From Gaiellales bacterium (lineage in GTDB: Bacteria; Actinomycetota; Thermoleophilia; Gaiellales; F1-60-MAGs149): DNA of 64,000 nucleotides. Each line of letters opens with the position of its first letter. Positions within the stretch are counted from its first letter, which is position 1. Made by a program: the position numbers and the translations under genes. The stretch covers positions 6,013 through 70,012 of the forward strand of contig JBCKBR010000001.1 in the NCBI GenBank assembly GCA_038911065.1, in the 5' to 3' direction. The notes under the pieces are model-generated. The model worked only from the letters and a program-made list of their open reading frames with translations, was not told the DNA's origin and did not search any database. This document shows, one piece after another, positions 1,698 through 49,162 of this stretch.

Positions 1698-3011
1698 GTG
1701 GCGGCAATTCGGATGGCGTATATCGGGGGCGGATCGACGCGTGCCGTTGGCACAGTCGCCTCGTTTATTCATCAGGGCGACGACTTCGCGGGGTCCGAGA
1801 TCGTACTGATCGACTTGCCAGGCTCGCGCCTCGACCTCGTTAAGTCGCTCGCCGAGAAGATGGCGAAGGCGCGCGGACTCGATATGACGTTCACGACCAC
1901 GACCGATCGTCGCGCAGGTCTGACCGACGTGGACGCCGTCCTCTCGAGCTTCCGTCCAGGGGGTTTCGAGGCACGCGTGCTCGACGAGCGGATTCCGCTC
2001 CGCAACGGTGTGATTGGTCAGGAGACGCAGGGGCCTGGTGGATTCTTTATGTGCTTGCGTTCGGTCAATGTGATGATCGGCGTTGCCGAGGACCTCGCGG
2101 CTGTCGCGCCCCAGGCGAAGGTGTTCAACTACACGAACCCCGTCAATCTGGTGGCGCAGGCGTGGACGACGCATTGCGCCATTCCACTGGTCGCGCTGTG
2201 TGAGGGACCGATTGTGTATCCCCGCGAGTTGATGCGCGATCTCGGCTACATCTACGACGATGTCGACGCCAAGATGGTCGGCCTCAACCATGCCTCGTGG
2301 GCGTTCGAGCAGACGTATCAGGGCGAGGACGCGATGCCGATCCTGCGTCGCGAATGGGAGGCGCGCAAAGACGATCCGAACGAGGACCGCGACCTTCTGC
2401 GTCGGCTGAGGATTGCGACGACGTTCGACGCGATCCCGTCGCACTACTTCCAGTACTACTACTGCGAGGACGAGGTGCTGGCCGAGCTCGAGGCGAAGGG
2501 CACGACGCGTGCCGAGGACATCCTGTCGTGGACGCCAGGCTATTGGGAGCATTACGAGGAGCAGTCGCGGTCCGATGATCCACAACTGGACCCGGCCCGT
2601 TCGCGTGGTGGCATCCACGAGCTCGAGCTCGCGATCGACGTGATGGACGCCGTCTTCAACGATAAGGACGAGATTCATCCCGTCAACGTCCCAAACAAGG
2701 GCGGCATGTTGCCCGGGTTCGCAGAGGACATCGTGGTCGAAATTTACGGGCGCTGCAACAAGGATTGGATCGAACCGTTGCCTGCACCGCCACTGCCACG
2801 CGACGTACGGGGTCTGGTCGAGGCGCTCGCTGAGTATCAGGCCTTGGCGGGCCAGGTCGCCTGGGAGGGCGATTGGAAGGCCGACATTCGCGCCTTGGCG
2901 GCCAACCCGCTGGTGCGCACGATTGACAAGGCCGAAACGATCTACATGGAGCTCGCGGCCGCACATCGGGCGCACTTGCCCGAGCGCCTCGTGCCGCCCA
3001 GTCTGCGATGA
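1698..3011 (+). CDS. Glycoside hydrolase family 4 (NAD/Mn-dependent glycosidase)
   Basis: 437 aa with the N-terminal Rossmann motif IRMAYIGGGSTRAV typical of GH4. AAGGAG lies 6 nt upstream of GTG 1698. The gene sits inside the sugar-uptake operon. Confidence 0.75.
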   Translation: MAAIRMAYIGGGSTRAVGTVASFIHQGDDFAGSEIVLIDLPGSRLDLVKSLAEKMAKARGLDMTFTTTTDRRAGLTDVDAVLSSFRPGGFEARVLDERIPLRNGVIGQETQGPGGFFMCLRSVNVMIGVAEDLAAVAPQAKVFNYTNPVNLVAQAWTTHCAIPLVALCEGPIVYPRELMRDLGYIYDDVDAKMVGLNHASWAFEQTYQGEDAMPILRREWEARKDDPNEDRDLLRRLRIATTFDAIPSHYFQYYYCEDEVLAELEAKGTTRAEDILSWTPGYWEHYEEQSRSDDPQLDPARSRGGIHELELAIDVMDAVFNDKDEIHPVNVPNKGGMLPGFAEDIVVEIYGRCNKDWIEPLPAPPLPRDVRGLVEALAEYQALAGQVAWEGDWKADIRALAANPLVRTIDKAETIYMELAAAHRAHLPERLVPPSLR

Positions 3012-3976
3012 ACGGCGGCGGGTTTGTGCTCGGTGCGGACGGAGGTAACACGAAGACGGTTGTGCTGCTTGCCCGTATGGATGGCGAGATCATCGGTTGG
3101 GGTCGTGCCGGCTCGAGCGACGTGTACGACACGGCGGGCGCCGATGCCGCGATCTGCGCGTTGACGACTGCCGTGCGCGCAGCCTGCGCGATGGCGGGGT
3201 GTCAAGGCAGTCAGGTGGAATCGGCGGTGTTCGGTCTGGCCGGTGCCGACTGGCCGGAAGATTTTGCGTTGCTCGATGCTGCCATGCGCGGTGAACTTGG
3301 AGGCGACGTGACGATTCTCAACGATGCCGTCAACGCAATTCGCTGCGGCACGCCGGATGGTGTCGGCGTCGTCGTGTCGTGTGGCACGGGGGGGACCGCC
3401 GCCGCCGTCGGTCCGAATGGGCAGGTGTATCACCGTGGCTTCTGGCCCGAACCTTCGGGTGCACGCGAGATCGGACGCCTCGGCTTACAGTCGGTCCAGC
3501 GCGCCTGGCTCGGCCTCGAGGGGCCGACGCTGTTGACCGAGTTGGCACTCGCGCGTTATGGCGCGAGCGATCCCGACGATCTGTTGCATCGGCGGACGGC
3601 TCGCGGGCGACCCGACACGACGGATAGTCGCTGGTTTTGTCCTGACGTATTGGATGCTGCCGCGGCAGGAGACGCGACCGCGCGTACGATCGTGCAACGC
3701 GAAGGCAATGTGTTGGGTGGACAGGCGCGGGTCTGTGCGCAGCGCGTCGGCTACGCGGACGCATTTCCACTCGTCTTCGTTGGTGGTGTGTTGAGCCATC
3801 CGAGTCGACTCTTGCGCGAGGTAATCCTCGCCGAGGTGCCGGGTGCGGTGCCGGTCGAACCGCACAGCGAGCCGGCGGTTGCAGCGCTGTTGCGAGCGTT
3901 TGACGCGATTGGGGTCGATGTCGCGAGCCGTGTCGCTGAGACGCTGCCCGCTCGTTCGGTCTTTACAACCGACTAG
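3008..3976 (+). CDS. BadF/BadG/BcrA/BcrD-type ATPase, N-acetylglucosamine-kinase-like sugar kinase
   Basis: ATGA overlap with the GH4 stop. N-terminal phosphate motif [11 protein letters not shown]; 322 aa. Confidence 0.7.
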
Positions 3977-5127
3977 ACGAGCGCGAGGCCCGAGGTCGGG
4001 TCGAACAGGTGGATCCGCTCGGGGTCGACGGCGAGCGACAGAGCCGATCCGACAGCGAGACCGGTGTGCGCGTCAAGGCGCGTGGTAAAGAGGGCACGAT
4101 CATCGTCCACGAGGAGTGCCCCATCGTGCTCACTCTCGGCCTCGGCGGCGGCCAGCACGGCTTCGCTCGAGACCTTCTTGCTGTCTACGGGCATAATCGC
4201 GTGCGCTTCGGCGCCGAGATCCTCGAGGACCGCGATCGTGCCACTCAGCGTCGGGCCAGCATTGGTCGCAGTGGTTACCTCGACGTCGGTTGGGCGAATA
4301 CCGACTACGACGTGCGTGGTGCCGCTAGGAATACGGCCAGCGTGCACGGGAATGCGCATGCCGGCACAGCTCACGTGAGCACCATCCACGGCGCCATCCA
4401 GGAGGTTCATCTGGGGGCTGCCGATAAAGGCCGCTACGAAGAGGTTGGCGGGTGCGCGGTACAGCTCGCTCGGTGGTGCGACCTGCTGGATGACGCCGTC
4501 GCGGAGTACGACGACCTTGTCGCCGAGCGTCATCGCCTCGATCTGGTCGTGCGTCACGTAGACGGTGGTGGTGCGGAGGCGCTCGTGGAGGCGCGCGAGT
4601 TCGGCGCGCATCGAGACGCGTAGCTTGGCGTCGAGGTTCGAGAGCGGCTCGTCCATCAGGTAGACGGCGGGTTCGCGCACCATCGCCCGACCCATCGCGA
4701 CGCGCTGGCGCTGCCCGCCCGAGAGTTGGTTGGGTTTGCGTTCGAGGAGGTCTTCGAGGCCGAGGATTTTGGCGACTTCGGCCACGCGACGCTCGCGCTC
4801 GTCGCGTGGTGTGCGCCGCAACTTGAGGCCGAAGGCGAGATTGTCGCGTACCTTCATCTGGGGGTAGAGAGCGTAGTTCTGGAAGACCATCGCGATATCG
4901 CGGTCACGCGGCGGCGTGTTGGTGACGTCCCGGCCACCGATCTGGACCGAGCCCTCGGTGATGTGCTCGAGTCCGGCGATCATTCGCAGCAGCGTCGACT
5001 TACCGCAACCCGACGGGCCAACCAGTACGACGAATTCGCCATCTTCGACGGTCAGATCGATCCCATCGACCGCACGCACGCCGCCCGGATAGACCTTGGC
5101 AACCTTGTCGAGGACGATCCCGGCCAT
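3973..5127 (-). CDS. Sugar ABC transporter ATP-binding protein (MalK/UgpC/MsiK type)
   Basis: Walker [10 protein letters not shown], signature LSGGQRQR, Walker [12 protein letters not shown]. Start moved to MAGIVLDK (ATG ending at 5127) because the 40 upstream codons of ORF 3973-5247 are Arg/Pro-rich filler. Confidence 0.9.
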
Positions 5128-5148: not shown

Positions 5149-5168
5149 ATTTCGTGATGGGGGCGGAC
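5149..5168. repeat. Truncated copy of the ATTTCGTGATGGGG-GGCGGAC clamp/REP junction
   Basis: ATTTCGTGATGGGGGCGGAC matches the left end of the palindromes at 11076 and 49077. No right arm follows. Confidence 0.5.
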
Positions 5169-5239
5169 GACAATTACCACGACAGGTCGAGCAGCCCTGA
5201 CCAGAATTGCCGGGGGTGGGGCGACCCCGAGCGGGGGAG

Positions 5240-5312
5240 TAGCGCATACGGGATTCGAACCCGTGCTACCGCCGTGAGAGGGCGGCGTCCTAGGCCCCTA
5301 GACGAATGCGCC
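5240..5312 (-). tRNA. tRNA-Glu (anticodon CUC)
   Basis: The reverse complement folds as a cloverleaf. Acceptor GGCGCAT/ATGCGCT, D arm GTCTAGGGGCCTAGGAC, anticodon stem CCGCC/GGCGG with loop CTCTCAC, T arm ACGGG-TTCGAAT-CCCGT. No encoded CCA. Confidence 0.85.
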
Positions 5313-6141: not shown

Positions 6142-6151
6142 ACGGTCAAGG

Positions 6152-6222
6152 CTGGGGGACAGGGATTCGAACCCCGATACCTGGGACCAGAACCCAGTGT
6201 CCTGCCGTTAGACGATCCCCCA
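6152..6222 (-). tRNA. tRNA-Gln (anticodon CUG)
   Basis: Reverse complement: acceptor TGGGGGA/TCCCCCA, anticodon stem CTGGG/CCCAG with loop TTCTGGT, T arm CGGGG-TTCGAAT-CCCTG. No encoded CCA. Confidence 0.85.
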
Positions 6223-11075: not shown

Positions 11076-11170
11076 CGATTTCGTGATGGGGGGGCGGATC
11101 CCACAACCGCGCGGTTGTGGGGTCCGCCCATCCGCGCGGTTGTGGGATCCGCCCCCCCATCACGAAATCG
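11076..11170. repeat. 95-nt palindrome with perfect 39-nt arms that contains REP-like cores
   Basis: 11076-11114 is the exact reverse complement of 11132-11170; the loop is 17 nt. A 36-nt REP-like core lies at 11093-11128. Confidence 0.95.
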
Positions 11171-13322: not shown

Positions 13323-13754
13323 ATGTCGAAGAAGAAGCAGCGTGATCGCGAAGAGCGGTATCGGCGACATGGCGTGGAGCGTCCGCGTTCGCCGCAGATC
13401 GACGAGAAGGAATCGCGCGACGAGAGCGCGGCGGATTCCAAGGCGAAGGGGTCGAAGGGACGCCGAACGCCCGCGCCACGTCGTGCACGCAAGCCGGTTG
13501 CGTACCCGACGTTGTTCCGTTGTCTGGTGCGCGCGCCGCTGTTTGGGTTGATGTGGTTTGTGATCGCCCGCTTCTTCCTCGGTGAGTCGGGTAATACGGT
13601 CAATGCGGACATCTTGCAGGCTGTGATCTTGTCGGGCGCGATGGTGCCACTCTTGTTTATGGCCGACACGGTCACGTATCGGCTCGCTCGGCGGCGTAAC
13701 CTAGAGGTTGCGGAGCGGCCGGCCGACGGGTGGTTCGGGTTTCCGGGCAGGTAA
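13323..13754 (+). CDS. Hypothetical small membrane protein (basic N-terminus, 2-3 TM segments)
   Basis: ORF 13254-13754. Start uncertain (13254, 13311 or ATG 13323, giving MSKKKQRDRE). Confidence 0.45.
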   Translation: MSKKKQRDREERYRRHGVERPRSPQIDEKESRDESAADSKAKGSKGRRTPAPRRARKPVAYPTLFRCLVRAPLFGLMWFVIARFFLGESGNTVNADILQAVILSGAMVPLLFMADTVTYRLARRRNLEVAERPADGWFGFPGR

Positions 13755-13928
13755 TTTCGTGGTGGGTCGGGTTTCCGGGCAAGCGTTGAGTCGTGGCACG
13801 GTGCGTGCTGCTTCGGTGCGGGTGTGGCACGCGGCGCGGTTAGTGGAGTTGTGATGCGGCGCGTGTCTGCGCGCTGGGTGCTCGTTCTGTTCACGAACGA
13901 CTGATCCGCGAACCCGCATCGTGGCGGC

Positions 13929-14780
13929 ATGCGACGCGCGCAGGCCACGATCGAGTTGTTGGTGTTGTTGGGTGTGGCGGTGGTGTTGATGGGCTTCGTG
14001 ATCGCGGCGACGCGGTCGGATGCCGCTTCGTATACGCGGCGGCTTGTCGAGGCGATTCCGGGGCATCAGCCGGTGCGGCGCGATGATCGGTGGGCGTTAC
14101 GGAGCGATCCTTACGGTCCGTTGTTGCGTCGCTACACGCCGACGCTGGTGTTGGAGCGCGATCGTTATGGCGAGGATGCGGCGATGCCCGTCGATGTGGC
14201 GGTCTGTCGGAAGCCGTGGTGTGCGGCCTTTGGTGTGGGGCGGCCAGCGATCTTCACGCATTTGGTGCGGAAGCCGGGAGTGACGTTTTTGCAGTACTGG
14301 TTTTATTACCCCGATTCGAAGACGACGCATGCGCCGGTGGCGCGGTGGCGCGGGTATCACCGCGACGATTGGGAGGGTCTGATTGTGCGGATTCCCGATG
14401 GAGGGCCGGCGGCTGCTCGTGTGACGGCGCATCTTGGTTTGGTCGGTGCGAGGGCGGGCTGGTTTGGCGATCCGGGTTGGCGGCCGATTGCTGCGCATCC
14501 AGTGGTGTATCGCGCTGCTGGTTCGCATGCGAATGGTTTTGAGCGGCTCGGTATTGATGCGCCGTTGGATGTCTGGAATGGTGATCTCGGCCGCGTCGAC
14601 TCGGCTGCCTTCCAACTGATCGCGGGCGATACGGCGCCGGCCCTGCGCTTTCGCTACGACCCAGCAGCGGTACCACCGTGGCGCAAGGCGCTGTGGTCGA
14701 ATCCTGAGGCGACGAACACGGGTGGCGCGCCCCCAAGCGGACGCGGCTGTCCATGGCGCAATTGTGGAGGGCGGACATGA
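13929..14780 (+). CDS. Hypothetical exported protein with a TadE/prepilin-like N-terminus
   Basis: MRRAQATIELLVLLGVAVVLMGFVIAA is followed by a globular domain with YWFYYPDS ... GYHRDDWEG. The stop codon TGA 14778-14780 lies inside REP copy 1. Confidence 0.5.
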   Translation: MRRAQATIELLVLLGVAVVLMGFVIAATRSDAASYTRRLVEAIPGHQPVRRDDRWALRSDPYGPLLRRYTPTLVLERDRYGEDAAMPVDVAVCRKPWCAAFGVGRPAIFTHLVRKPGVTFLQYWFYYPDSKTTHAPVARWRGYHRDDWEGLIVRIPDGGPAAARVTAHLGLVGARAGWFGDPGWRPIAAHPVVYRAAGSHANGFERLGIDAPLDVWNGDLGRVDSAAFQLIAGDTAPALRFRYDPAAVPPWRKALWSNPEATNTGGAPPSGRGCPWRNCGGRT

Positions 14781-14983
14781 CATCCGCGGGGTTGTGGCGT
14801 CCGCCTGCACGCACCACCAAGGCGGACCTCACATCCGCGGGGTTGTGGCGTCCGCCTGCACGCACCAGTCACCACCGCAGCGTCCACCAGCCCCAAGGCG
14901 GACCTGACATCCGCGGGGTTGTGGCGTCCGCCCTCGCGCAGCGGCAAGGCGGACCTGACATCCGCGGGGTTGTGGCGTCCGCC
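14770..14983 (+). repeat. Array of four 36-nt REP hairpin units
   Basis: GGCGGAC-NNN-ACATCCGCGGGGTTGTGGCGTCCGCC at 14770-14805, 14821-14856, 14897-14932 and 14948-14983. Only positions 8-10 vary (ATG/CTC/CTG). Confidence 0.95.
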
Positions 14984-14994
14984 TTGGGGCAGCT

Positions 14995-15909
14995 GTGACG
15001 ACGCCTCGCCGATTCGATGACGGGCCTGGCGCGATCAATCACGTCATCGCTCAAGGAGTGTTTGGTGACAAGCTCGCGCCGGATGCCTCCTGGGGGACAG
15101 AGCTCTTTGGCACTCTGGTGCGCGAGGCGCACGAGCGTGGTTGGGATATCTGGTCGCTCTGCATTATGGGAACCCACTATCACCTGCTCGTGTCCACGCC
15201 TGATGGGAGCCTTGCTGAGGGGATTCAGCGTGCCCATACCGCACACGCCATTCGTCGCAATCGGCATCATGCGACGCGCCGGGGTGCTGTTTTTGGCAGG
15301 CGTTACGAAGTCTTTCCGATTCGTGACGGCGAGCACCTCAGAAACGCGCTGCGGTACATCCCACGCAACCCTGTCAAGGCTGGCTTGTGTCGCGAACCTG
15401 GTGATTGGCCGTACGGGACGTATCGCGCGATCGCCGGTATCGAACCGTGTGCGAAGTGGATTCCGAAAGCGCGTATCTTCACTGCGTTGGAGGGGGATTT
15501 CAGCGATCCGTACGAGACGTGGTTCGGCGAGCACCACTACCGCCGATTGTGTAGTTCGCTGATCGAGACACCGACGCCGCCACTGCGGCACGACGATTGG
15601 AACCGCTACGACACGGAGTGCTTGCGCGCTGCGGGCAAGTCGACCAAGCAGATCGCAGAGGCCTTGCAGTTGTCGACGCGTCATGTGCGGCGTTTGAGCG
15701 AAGGGCGGACCTCACATCCGCGGGGTTGTGGCGTCCGCCTTCGCACATCACCCACCACCGCATCGTCCACCAGCTCCAGGGCGGACCTGACATCCGCGGG
15801 GTTGTGGCGTCCGCCTTGGGTAGGGCGGACGCCACAACCCCGCGGATGTCAGGTCCGCCCTGGAGAGATGGCTGTCACGTCCGCAAGATCGACTAGAGTC
15901 CTGTCCTGA
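14995..15909 (+). CDS. REP-associated tyrosine transposase (IS200/Y1 HUH superfamily) with a C-terminal HTH
   Basis: HUH motif THYHLLV (codons 60-66), tyrosine motif LRYIPRNPVKAGL (Y121), HTH-like KSTKQIAEALQLSTRHVRRL (about codons 214-234). Codons 237-304 are read from REP DNA. Confidence 0.85.
   Translation: MTTPRRFDDGPGAINHVIAQGVFGDKLAPDASWGTELFGTLVREAHERGWDIWSLCIMGTHYHLLVSTPDGSLAEGIQRAHTAHAIRRNRHHATRRGAVFGRRYEVFPIRDGEHLRNALRYIPRNPVKAGLCREPGDWPYGTYRAIAGIEPCAKWIPKARIFTALEGDFSDPYETWFGEHHYRRLCSSLIETPTPPLRHDDWNRYDTECLRAAGKSTKQIAEALQLSTRHVRRLSEGRTSHPRGCGVRLRTSPTTASSTSSRADLTSAGLWRPPWVGRTPQPRGCQVRPGEMAVTSARSTRVLS
15704..15859. repeat. Three REP units downstream of the RAYT gene (two direct, one inverted)
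   Basis: 15704-15739 (+), 15780-15815 (+), 15824-15859 (inverted). The last two form an inverted doublet with an 8-nt gap. Confidence 0.95.
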
Positions 15910-15928
15910 CCTAGTCCGCCCCTTTAAA

Positions 15929-15953
15929 CCGGTCCTGTGAGGCCGGGAAGGAG
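15929..15953 (+). promoter_or_regulatory. PyrR-binding-loop-like RNA hairpin abutting a Shine-Dalgarno sequence
   Basis: CCGG-UCCUGUGAGG-CCGG (15929-15946). GGUCCUGUGAGGCC resembles the PyrR box ARUCCAGAGAGGYU. AAGGAG lies at 15948-15953. Confidence 0.6.
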
Positions 15954-15966
15954 CTCGTTCAGCACC

Positions 15967-16005
15967 ATGATCGTCTCTTCTCGCAACTGGCGCGTGCGCC
16001 GGTGA
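15967..16005 (+). other. Candidate 12-codon leader ORF ([12 protein letters not shown]) coupled to pyrR
   Basis: ATG 15967 lies 13 nt after AAGGAG. Its TGA (16003-16005) overlaps the pyrR GTG (16002-16004) as GTGA. Confidence 0.35.
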
Positions 16006-16586
16006 GCCCTCTGCAGACGCGCGTATTGCTCGATGCTGATCAGATTGCGCGCACGCTTGCGCGGATTGGATCTGAGATTGTCGAGCGCCACCCCGATCTG
16101 TCGAGCGTGCATCTCGTCGGCATTCGCTCGCGTGGCGTGCCGATCGCGGAGCGCATCCGCGACCGCATCAAGGAGACGACGGGTGTTGAGGTGCCGGTCG
16201 GTGCCGTCGACATCAGCTTCTATCGCGACGATGTCGGCTTGCGTTCCGGTGTAGATGAGCGCCTGGGCGACCATCCGATCGTTGGTGAGACGATCCTCGA
16301 CGGGCCGGTCGAGGGTGCGACGGTGGTGCTCGTTGACGATGTGCTCTACACGGGCCGCACGGTGCGCGCGGCAATCGACGCGATCTTCGATTACGGCCGC
16401 CCGGCGTGTATCGAGCTCGCTGTGCTCGCCGATCGTGGACATCGCGAACTACCGTTCCGAGCGGACTTCGTGGGCAAGAATCTGCCAACGCAGCTTGCGG
16501 AGCATGTGCGGGTGCGACTGGTTGAGACGGATGGGGTCGACGAGGTTGTGCTGATTGGCGGCGGCGGCGAGGGGGAGACAACATGA
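16002..16586 (+). CDS. pyrR: Pyrimidine operon regulator / uracil phosphoribosyltransferase PyrR
   Basis: [14 protein letters not shown] and the PRPP motif [17 protein letters not shown]. 194 aa. Confidence 0.95.
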
Positions 16587-20017: not shown

Positions 20018-20053
20018 GGCGGACCTCACATCCGCGGGGTTGTGGCGTCCGCC
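20018..20053 (+). repeat. Solo REP unit in the carA-carB spacer
   Basis: GGCGGACCTCACATCCGCGGGGTTGTGGCGTCCGCC is identical to copies 2 and 5 of the RAYT-flanking arrays. Confidence 0.95.
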
Positions 20054-25914: not shown

Positions 25915-25948
25915 GATTTCGCGATGGGGTCAGGCCTCATCACGAAAT
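25915..25948. terminator. Clamp-only hairpin (GATTTCGCGATGGGG ... CCTCATCACGAAAT) after gmk
   Basis: Imperfect inverted repeat that starts 2 nt after the gmk stop. It has the same arm sequence as the outer arms of the 11076 and 49077 palindromes but no REP core. Confidence 0.45.
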
Positions 25949-49076: not shown

Positions 49077-49162
49077 GTCAGGCTCGGTTTCGTGATGGGG
49101 GGCGGATGCCACATCCGCGCGGTTGTGGCATCCGCCCCCCCCATCACGAAACCGAGCCTGAC
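49077..49162. repeat. 86-nt palindrome: REP-like core (49101-49136) inside a TTTCGTGATGGGG clamp and longer arms
   Basis: GTCAGGCTCGGTTTCGTGAT (49077-49096) is the exact reverse complement of 49143-49162. The core is 31/36 identical to the RAYT-flanking REP. G4 versus C6 run asymmetry. Confidence 0.95.

Follow-up and report, generated by a model that had tools for sequence, protein, structure and literature searches.

In the 64,000-nt stretch of DNA analysed here (the window; assembly GCA_038911065.1, contig JBCKBR010000001.1, positions 6,013 to 70,012 of the forward strand), which comes from an uncultured freshwater actinobacterium of the Gaiellales type, a gene coding for a Y1 HUH tyrosine enzyme is found upstream of the pyrR operon, flanked on both sides by arrays of a 36-nt repetitive extragenic palindrome (REP). 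The order Gaiellales is placed in the class Thermoleophilia of the phylum Actinomycetota. It is probable that this locus is a REPtron, in which a single-copy, vertically inherited enzyme that resembles the REP-associated tyrosine transposases (RAYTs), and that carries a helix-turn-helix (HTH) at its C terminus, is embedded in arrays of its cognate REP, and that this REP has spread through the genomes of the lineage.

The REP arrays and the REP hairpin

The REP has the sequence GGCGGAC-NNN-ACATCCGCGGGGTTGTGGCGTCCGCC, and the seven exact copies reported in the initial annotation are present at 14770, 14821, 14897, 14948, 15704 and 15780 on the + strand and at 15824 on the - strand, when compared with 0.00 matches in dinucleotide-preserving shuffles. 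The features of the locus are as follows.

14770..14805, + strand: REP1, loop ATG; its TGA at 14778-14780 terminates the upstream gene 13929-14780
14821..14856, + strand: REP2, loop CTC; its sequence is that of the dispersed master copy
14897..14932, + strand: REP3, loop CTG; the 127-nt tandem unit of the upstream array starts for the second time here
14948..14983, + strand: REP4, loop CTG; ends 11 nt 5' of the GTG start codon
14995..15711, + strand: native-length RAYT-like coding sequence (CDS), 239 codons; Y1 HUH core with H61, H63, Y121 and N125, and a C-terminal three-helix HTH
15704..15739, + strand: REP5, loop CTC; runs across the 3' end of the native CDS
15712..15909, + strand: read-through extension, 65 codons and a stop codon; encoded by REPs and spacers and no part of the native CDS
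15780..15815, + strand: REP6, loop CTG
15824..15859, - strand: REP7, inverted; in direct orientation in close relatives

The gene is thus flanked by several copies of one palindrome family, four upstream and three at or after its 3' end, and the same arrangement, with other palindrome sequences, is seen in the orthologues. The upstream copies have starts 51/76/51 nt apart, the members of the inverted pair are separated by 8 nt, and all variation is confined to positions 8-10 (ATG, CTC, CTG, CTG, CTC, CTG and CTG), as initially described. This is also true for the higher-order unit 14821-14932, which is repeated at 15704-15815 with 92% identity, the two 40-nt spacers being identical at 31 of 40 positions in a position-by-position hand count. 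The upstream array is itself a tandem duplication of a 127-nt unit (14770-14875 versus 14897-15002, 85% identity), and a GGGG run that resembles a Shine-Dalgarno sequence immediately follows the 3' arm of REP4. REP6 and REP7 belong to a 42-nt perfect inverted pair (15774-15815 and 15824-15865). Sub-threshold matches of this pair (15774-15865) to eukaryotic miRNA precursors, obtained in an E-value Rfam scan, are dismissed as generic artefacts of long hairpins; at gathering thresholds the Rfam scan finds only tRNAs.

Each REP, together with its flanks, is predicted to fold as single-stranded DNA into a hairpin of -14.4 kcal/mol (z = -4.1), in agreement with the fold proposed earlier. In this hairpin the outer stem is extended to 11 bp, a 3x3 internal loop comes next, and the inner stem, of 6 bp, contains a T.T mismatch. 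Among 84 sequence types, the palindromy is preserved by compensatory changes at the pairs 3-34, 7-30, 8-29, 9-28 and 15-22, and the T.T mismatch at 14-23 is kept in 47 of them. The retention of this asymmetry favours the recognition of one strand as a hairpin.

The RAYT-like enzyme

The open reading frame (ORF) 14995-15909 has a GTG start codon, codes for 304 residues and contains the motifs THYHLLV and LRYIPRNPVKAGL, as noted before. It is matched by the Pfam profile Y1_Tnp (24.3 bits, cut-off 23), and its sole NCBIfam family match is REP_Tyr_transpos (NF047646, E = 7e-17). The latter model matches all 45 homologues, versus five (all of them distant homologues) for the IS200 model, to which the window protein has no match. 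Residues H61, H63, Y121, N125 and P126 are invariant in the 45 homologues, and the tyrosine motif YIPRNP is of the class-2 Y-x-x-x-N-P type and not of the Y-x-x-x-Q type of IS200-like enzymes, according to the class motif table of PMC6006769.

The structural comparisons point in the same direction. When the family profile is compared with the sequences of the Protein Data Bank (PDB), it matches Escherichia coli TnpA-REP (PDB entry: 4ER8) with E = 1.5e-5 over the YIxxNPVK...DWPF region, versus E = 0.36 for the ISDra2 TnpA. The AlphaFold (AF2) model calculated from the 45-sequence alignment (pLDDT 92.8, pTM 0.89) also has 4ER8 as its top fold match in the PDB (E = 3.8e-7, TM 0.73, 156 columns), followed by the IS200, IS608 and ISDra2 transposases at ~2e-4 over ~105 columns. 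Clearly, the best matches of both sequence and fold are to E. coli TnpA-REP and not to the IS200/IS605 transposases, as expected for the HUH tyrosine enzyme of the RAYT kind that had been proposed. Residues 199-236 of the model form three helices typical of an HTH. In the window protein the corresponding match to HTH_23 (residues 210-234) is weak, at 18-19 bits and under the Pfam cut-off; among the 45 homologues, HTH_23 is found in 15, HTH_28 in 5 and Bac_DnaA_C in 4. In a library of 1.8 billion proteins, the numbers of matching clusters are 5 at E <= 1e-30, 2,091 at 1e-10 and 12,597 at 1e-3, the clade of this enzyme being a small group within a very large superfamily.

A stop codon within the REP

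The length of the ORF is different from that of the homologues, which mostly have 239-250 residues. The CDS of the 92%-identical orthologue ends with ...GAA GGG CGG ACG TGA, its stop codon being loop positions 9-11 of the first downstream REP, and relatives of the window have CTG-A or GTG-A at the position of REP5 (CTG-A in the 98%-identical relatives), which also provides an in-frame TGA. An in-REP stop codon is also present in orthologues of ~60% identity (GGG AGG ACA TGA and AAG GGG ACA TGA), and in the 52% orthologue there is a TAG within a different REP; the related loci that have the stop codon within a REP are L001, L062, L111, L112 and L115. In the window, the CTC loop of REP5 (TCA, not TGA) removes this stop codon, and the frame therefore runs through REP5, the spacer, REP6 and REP7 to 15909. 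The initial description of REPs that bracket the ORF consequently holds for the four upstream copies, whereas the three "downstream" copies are part of the called ORF. With this correction of the ORF end, the REP/RAYT interpretation is supported.

The cluster of proteins sharing 90% identity with the enzyme has members of 239, 253, 264, 290 and 304 residues, and it is suspected that the longer ones arise by the same stop loss in other strains. The upstream gene, 13929-14780, which codes for 283 residues without a Pfam match, has the same relation to the REP: it ends with ...GGG CGG ACA TGA, with its stop codon in REP1, as is also seen in L001 and L111. The C-terminal HTH, the REP-embedded stop codon and the capped inverted doublet that is the main dispersed form of the REP (described below) are additions to the initial annotation.

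Dispersed REPs and REPIN-like doublets

The exact REP pattern has no match in a collection with one genome per GTDB species. A degenerate pattern finds 10 loci among these species-representative genomes, located in metagenome-assembled genomes (MAGs) titled Gaiellales, Thermoleophilia or Actinomycetota and on three contigs of one MAG titled Bifidobacterium breve, and it finds 99 stretches in metagenome contigs. The Gaiellales and Thermoleophilia titles of the related REP-bearing MAGs are in agreement with the "Actinomycetota-like" genome suggested earlier. The three contigs of the MAG titled Bifidobacterium breve (CAMAWJ01; L006, L007 and L008) carry REP doublets of the Gaiellales type, and the doublet of L006 is the same as that of L003, from an Actinomycetota MAG, in both REP sequences and in the 77-nt spacing. 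The title Bifidobacterium breve probably results from mislabelling or from an error in binning.

The REP census, made on the species-representative loci, the metagenome stretches and the window, comprises 268 REPs. The motif is not confined to the gene locus, being present also at 20018 in the window and at ~99 distinct sites, told apart by clustering of their flanks, in the related contigs. The master sequence has loop CTC and is identical to the window copies at 14821, 15704 and 20018; it accounts for 73 of the copies. The extragenic bias for which a check had been suggested is observed, since 235 of the 268 REPs are outside called genes, 16 are partly inside and 17 are inside, mostly in over-extended ORF ends; the gene calls were made with a crude caller based on third-position GC content (GC3), with 60% of the DNA called coding, and this bias is robust in its direction and not in its exact numbers. 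Contig ends are often found within or beside REP arrays, for example in L001 (JBCJUE010000002.1, last 67 nt) and in several other loci. REPs break short-read assemblies, and the REP counts derived from MAGs are therefore underestimates.

Besides singlets and direct arrays, the dispersed REPs mainly occur as inverted doublets of ~139 nt, which resemble the REP doublets forming hairpins (REPINs) of other bacteria and are the commonest arrangement. A check for fixed-spacing inverted doublets had been suggested, and 54 inverted doublets are found with start-to-start distances of 70-77 nt, 40 of them having one topology (70-76 nt) and 14 the other (73-77 nt). The order in the ~139-nt doublet is ATTTCGTGRTGGGG - REP - ~37-nt spacer - inverted REP - CCCCAYCACGAAAT, and the 38 non-redundant doublets have one architecture, GATTTCGTG(A/G)TGGGG - REP - 35-39-nt spacer - inverted REP - CCCCAYCACGAAATC, with the spacer in both orientations (18:15). 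The whole doublet is predicted to fold as a single long hairpin (-83 kcal/mol, z = -17).

Differences between close strains

The window shares 95-97% DNA identity with L001, L062, L095, L109 and L075, and there are five differences in REP state between the window and relatives that are 95-98% identical to it. Downstream of the gene, the window has REP(CTC)-40 nt-REP(CTG)-ttgggtag-REP(inverted), whereas L062 and L095 have REP(CTG, with the stop codon)-ttgggtag-REP-40 nt-REP-16 nt-REP, with all REPs in direct orientation. In the upstream array, the loops differ between strains, and L001 has three copies versus four in the window. Between carA and carB, a singlet in the window corresponds to a direct doublet, of a 63-nt unit, in L109 and L075. 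At position 13766, the window lacks a ~220-nt segment, carrying a capped inverted doublet, that L062 has; this segment is bounded by an imperfect direct repeat of ~35 nt, and either an insertion or a deletion may account for the difference. At 11093, 1.5 REPs and a GTCCGCC stub in the window correspond to a full doublet nested in another REP in L062 and to a single REP in L001. When considering all 30 sites that are found in more than one contig, the REP state differs at 13, some of these differences being contig ends. The earlier proposal of a recently active system is supported by these array and copy-number differences between strains of 95-98% identity. An intergenic region close to the gene locus (window 13700-13840, L062 9170-9530, L001 8660-8900) is hypervariable, and in L001 it consists of arm-motif repeats only; these repeats and the L062 segment are both missing from the window.

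Copy number, gene neighbourhood and orthologues

The gene is single-copy within the window, and in ~1 Mb of REP-bearing loci only three copies of it are present. The orthologues, at 92, 61, 60, 52 and 47% identity, are located between a hypothetical gene of ~287 residues upstream and pyrR-pyrB-pyrC-carA downstream, such that a fixed syntenic site is observed across orthologues of 47-98% identity. With these conserved neighbours and dN/dS values of 0.11-0.21, the gene is vertically inherited and under purifying selection. It is not the ordinary multi-copy IS200/IS605 TnpA that had been named as the competing possibility, as judged from the single copy in the window, the fixed synteny and the missing match to the IS200 model.

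In the window, pyrR is at 16002-16586, followed by pyrB, pyrC, carA and carB. A PyrR binding site (Rfam) is matched below threshold at 15917-15982 (31.2 bits versus a gathering score of 54, E = 0.068); given this match upstream of pyrR, the REP block directly precedes a probable pyr attenuator.

Every orthologue is flanked by its own diverged palindromes.

L112: flanking palindrome GGAGGACATCACATCCGCGCGGTTGTCATGTCCTCC
L111: flanking palindrome GAGGACATGACAAACCCCGGTTTGTCATGTCCTC
L115: flanking palindrome GGCGGGCGTCAGAAGTGCGCACTTGGCGCGTACGCC
L113: flanking palindrome of a fourth type

A relative with 37% identity, located in a different genomic context, likewise has REP arrays of its own, made of ACGTTTTTGGACCCGGGTCCAAAAACGT. 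From these comparisons, the REP sequence co-diverges with the flanked gene across the orthologues. A distant homologue bearing the DnaA_C domain (P0031) has, in place of a REP array, classic 34-nt terminal inverted repeats (TIRs) that contain GGGGTCAA. In L118, a contig of 1.18 Mb from an unrelated organism, a pair of Y1_Tnp genes (715-1683 and 3001-3981), with 1.3 kb between them, is found beside a giant RHS/YD-repeat gene, and the 34-nt TIRs of the DnaA_C-bearing one, with the GGGGTCAA motif, overlap its 3' end.

Other REP-related sites in the window

Outside the gene locus, the window contains the following REP-related sites.

5149..5168, + strand: terminal-arm motif and the first 7 nt of the REP (GGCGGAC), then unrelated sequence; truncated remnant
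11078..11168, no strand assigned: ATTTCGTGATGGGG arms around 1.5 REPs (11093-11153; diverged copies 11093/11118), with a GTCCGCC stub
20018..20053, + strand: dispersed exact REP (eighth copy), loop CTC; singlet between carA and carB
25916..25948, no strand assigned: "empty" short palindrome that immediately follows a stop codon and comprises the two 14-nt arm motifs alone, ATTTCGCGATGGGG tcagg CCTCATCACGAAAT
49077..49160, no strand assigned: near-perfect palindrome of ~84 nt with arms GTTTCGTGATGGGG and CCCCATCACGAAAC around one symmetric REP (49101-49136), between convergent genes

The palindrome at 49077..49160 can be read as a collapsed REPIN, and within the window the REPIN arrangement is represented only by the gene-adjacent pair with its 8-nt gap and by such collapsed forms. 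Three readings of the palindrome at 25916-25948 are possible: a remnant left by excision, a small repeat in its own right, or a site preferred as a target. The remnant at 5149..5168 is ~70 nt from a tRNA-Glu gene (5239-5312), and a tRNA-Gln gene is at 6150-6222.

Proposed mechanism and alternative explanations

The catalytic steps by which the REPtron would operate are single-strand hairpin recognition, cleavage by the tyrosine and rejoining in trans, as suggested by analogy with related enzymes. The enzyme would bind the REP hairpin when the DNA is single-stranded, and the T.T mismatch and the asymmetric internal loop would give the hairpin its strand identity. With a metal ion held by H61 and H63 together with N125, Tyr121 would cut beside the hairpin via a 5'-phosphotyrosine link, and the enzyme would then rejoin the DNA, such that REP units are moved in trans while the gene itself would be immobile. 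The stop codon is normally in the first downstream REP, and REP turnover consequently alters the length of the C terminus of the protein, as in the window. The single-strand HUH/tyrosine chemistry of the IS608 and ISDra2 TnpA proteins is a second model for these proposed steps. Recognition, cleavage and rejoining of REP hairpins are established for E. coli TnpA-REP (PMC3333891, PMC3479197, PMC8266576).

Several points weigh against the REPtron interpretation. The Y1_Tnp score is barely over its cut-off, the REP_Tyr_transpos score (61.7-62.3 bits) is under the equivalog cut-off of 80, and the enzyme activity of the window protein is a prediction made by analogy; the allele in the window has lost its stop codon and carries a 65-residue tail. 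The foot of the REP is without the unpaired 5' GT[AG]G or CGTC tag that is read by the E. coli-type enzymes, the gene-proximal flanks being CCAA, CCAG, GGAG and GAAG. In the dispersed copies, CGTG(A/G)T precedes an extended GGGG/CCCC stem; this sequence is similar, not identical, to the GT[AG]G tag, and judged by its position outside the stem it might stand in for the GT[AG]G foot. The dispersed copies come mostly from metagenome contigs, whose lineage is assigned by REP identity and sample co-occurrence only, and in the window itself the dispersed sites are one exact copy and two diverged ones. Several of the strain differences, such as the indels of direct units and the palindrome collapse, could also come from slippage or recombination without the enzyme.

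The last point leads to the alternative in which the enzyme is a relic, or has another function in the host, and in which the arrays and doublets are reshaped by replication slippage, palindrome collapse and recombination. This is unlikely, although the changes between close strains are whole-unit indels (the 63-nt unit between carA and carB and 76-nt units beside the gene), a REP stands in inverted orientation, symmetric singlets have arisen from collapsed doublets, direct repeats bound the ~220-nt segment and the stop codon is lost in the window. Slippage is unable to put one ~139-nt element at ~99 unrelated intergenic sites and in both orientations, as seen from the 18:15 distribution of the spacer, and a relic is difficult to reconcile with the purifying selection, the intact catalytic residues and a REP sequence that diverges along with the flanked gene. 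It is very unlikely that the palindromes are regulatory or terminator hairpins of the pyr operon or of other neighbours, or sites for a dimeric protein that binds double-stranded DNA, without relation to the adjacent gene. Their location at the ends of genes, between convergent genes and shortly before pyrR would fit such a role, as would perfect palindromy in the case of a dimeric binder, but a promoter and terminator scan of 14400-16200 gave nothing useful and no T-tract terminator signature, the conserved asymmetric T.T mismatch would not be needed in a symmetric double-stranded site, and arrays of at least four copies, with lineage-specific sequences, flank exactly the Y1 gene in every orthologue. 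The palindromes may still have a secondary role in the stability of RNA or in termination.

An ordinary IS200/IS605 insertion sequence (IS), with subterminal hairpins that are repeated by chance, is scarcely credible. The Y1 HUH fold is common to both, the fold matches to the IS608, ISDra2 and IS200 TnpA proteins are weak, and the five distant homologues touch the IS200 model; the window protein does not match this model, its Y motif is YIPRNP and not Y---Q, its HuH motif is THYH and not DH[VI]H (PMC6006769 Table 1), and the gene is single-copy at a site that is fixed over 47-98% identity. Moreover, the repeats mostly occur without any gene, and the gene calls at the orthologous loci include no neighbour annotated by Pfam as transposase-like. 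The probability of a degenerate CRISPR array is negligible: a partly palindromic repeat of 36 nt in short arrays is reminiscent of one, but the spacers of 8, 15 and 40 nt are themselves repeated (31/40; 92% for the 112-nt unit), as opposed to regular, unique spacers of ~26-72 nt, the arrays straddle a gene and the repeat is also dispersed as singlets and inverted doublets. There are no cas genes in the gene calls around the orthologous loci, no dedicated cas search having been made.

Comparison with known systems

The probable REPtron of the window has features in common with that of E. coli. The E. coli TnpA-REP (RAYT, YafM; 4ER8; PMC3333891, PMC3479197) likewise has a Y1 HUH core and a Y-x-x-x-N-P motif that is followed by an NPVK.G...DWP region, and in the E. 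coli REPtron, with its REPs and bacterial interspersed mosaic elements (BIMEs), a single-copy gene is likewise located between its own hairpin repeats, which are dispersed extragenically. The window enzyme differs by ~75 additional C-terminal residues with the HTH and by having Y-E/D as its "W" motif. The REP differs by its length of 36-44 nt and by the missing GTAG foot, six of the seven flanking REPs being direct and not inverted, and the host is an actinobacterium.

The REPIN-RAYT system of Pseudomonas fluorescens SBW25 and its relatives (PMC3116915, PMC3337134, PMC5581495) likewise consists of inverted REP pairs with a short spacer that form a long hairpin and have a dominant master sequence, together with a single-copy, vertically inherited gene under purifying selection. 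When compared with these REPINs, the doublet described here has extra 14-nt terminal inverted arms (ATTTCGTGRTGGGG), which also occur alone at 25916-25948, and the enzyme falls outside the group 2/3 type.

The enzyme resembles those of TnpA-Y1 subclass 2.1 (group 1 of Bertels), the probable equivalent of the TIR-associated tyrosine transposase (TIRYT)/TIRtron systems (PMC6006769, PMC3733652). It shares with this subclass the length (239 residues versus a median of 238) and, when considering the homologue set, a C-terminal HTH of the HTH_23, HTH_28 or Bac_DnaA_C kind. In subclass 2.1/TIRYT-like genes, too, flanking repeats are known to overlap the 3' end (PMC3733652). Subclass 2.1 is reported without REPs nearby and with TIRs bearing GGGGWSAS (PMC6006769, PMC3733652), whereas here true multi-copy REP hairpin arrays flank the gene. 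The GGGGWSAS motif was not found in the gene-flanking REP arrays and is not enriched in the window (11 matches versus ~36 in shuffles). The motifs of subclass 2.1 (NHVH/NH[YF]H, W[EQ]/FQ and YIELNP/Y[IV]HLNP) correspond here to THYH, Y-E (Y-D in relatives) and YIPRNP, which are an exact fit to none of the tabulated subclass consensus motifs; the class placement is made by hidden Markov model (HMM) scores, motifs and fold comparison and not by a reference RAYT/IS200 tree. With the IS200/IS605 family (the TnpA proteins of IS608 and ISDra2), the common features are the HUH/Y1 fold, DNA partners bearing hairpins and the presumed single-strand chemistry, and the differences are the weaker match, the catalytic motifs, the gene that is not multi-copy and the missing IS ends.

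The published REP survey covers eight phyla (PMC3733652). The main texts of PMC3733652, PMC6006769 and PMC5581495 are without mention of Actinobacteria, which is in agreement with the earlier remark that such systems are poorly documented in Actinomycetota, and a literature search combining REPIN or RAYT with actinobacterial terms gave no relevant paper. It is tentatively proposed, with somewhat less than even confidence, that this is the first REP/REPIN-RAYT system characterised in Actinomycetota and that it is run by an HTH-bearing enzyme of the subclass 2.1/TIRYT type, forming a bridge between TIRtrons and REPtrons.

Implications

A domesticated transposase that sustains a population of mini-elements within a single lineage has its textbook example in the REP/RAYT systems, and what is known of them comes almost entirely from Proteobacteria. 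The locus described here extends these systems to an uncultured freshwater lineage of actinobacteria, and it links true REP hairpins to an HTH-bearing branch of Y1 enzymes that is scored as REP-free in the published surveys. The 14-nt ATTTCGTGRTGGGG arms with which the dispersed doublets are capped may be what the C-terminal HTH recognises. Through the stop codon embedded in a REP, which is kept to ~60% identity, the turnover of REPs may be coupled to the length of the C terminus of the enzyme; REPs that overlap stop codons also result in variable ORF lengths (239 to 304 residues) and in contig breaks in MAGs. The strains of 95-98% identity, which at defined sites differ in the number, orientation and nesting of their REPs, provide material for studies of REP dynamics, and the orthologues, in which REP and enzyme have co-diverged, help to map the determinants of recognition.

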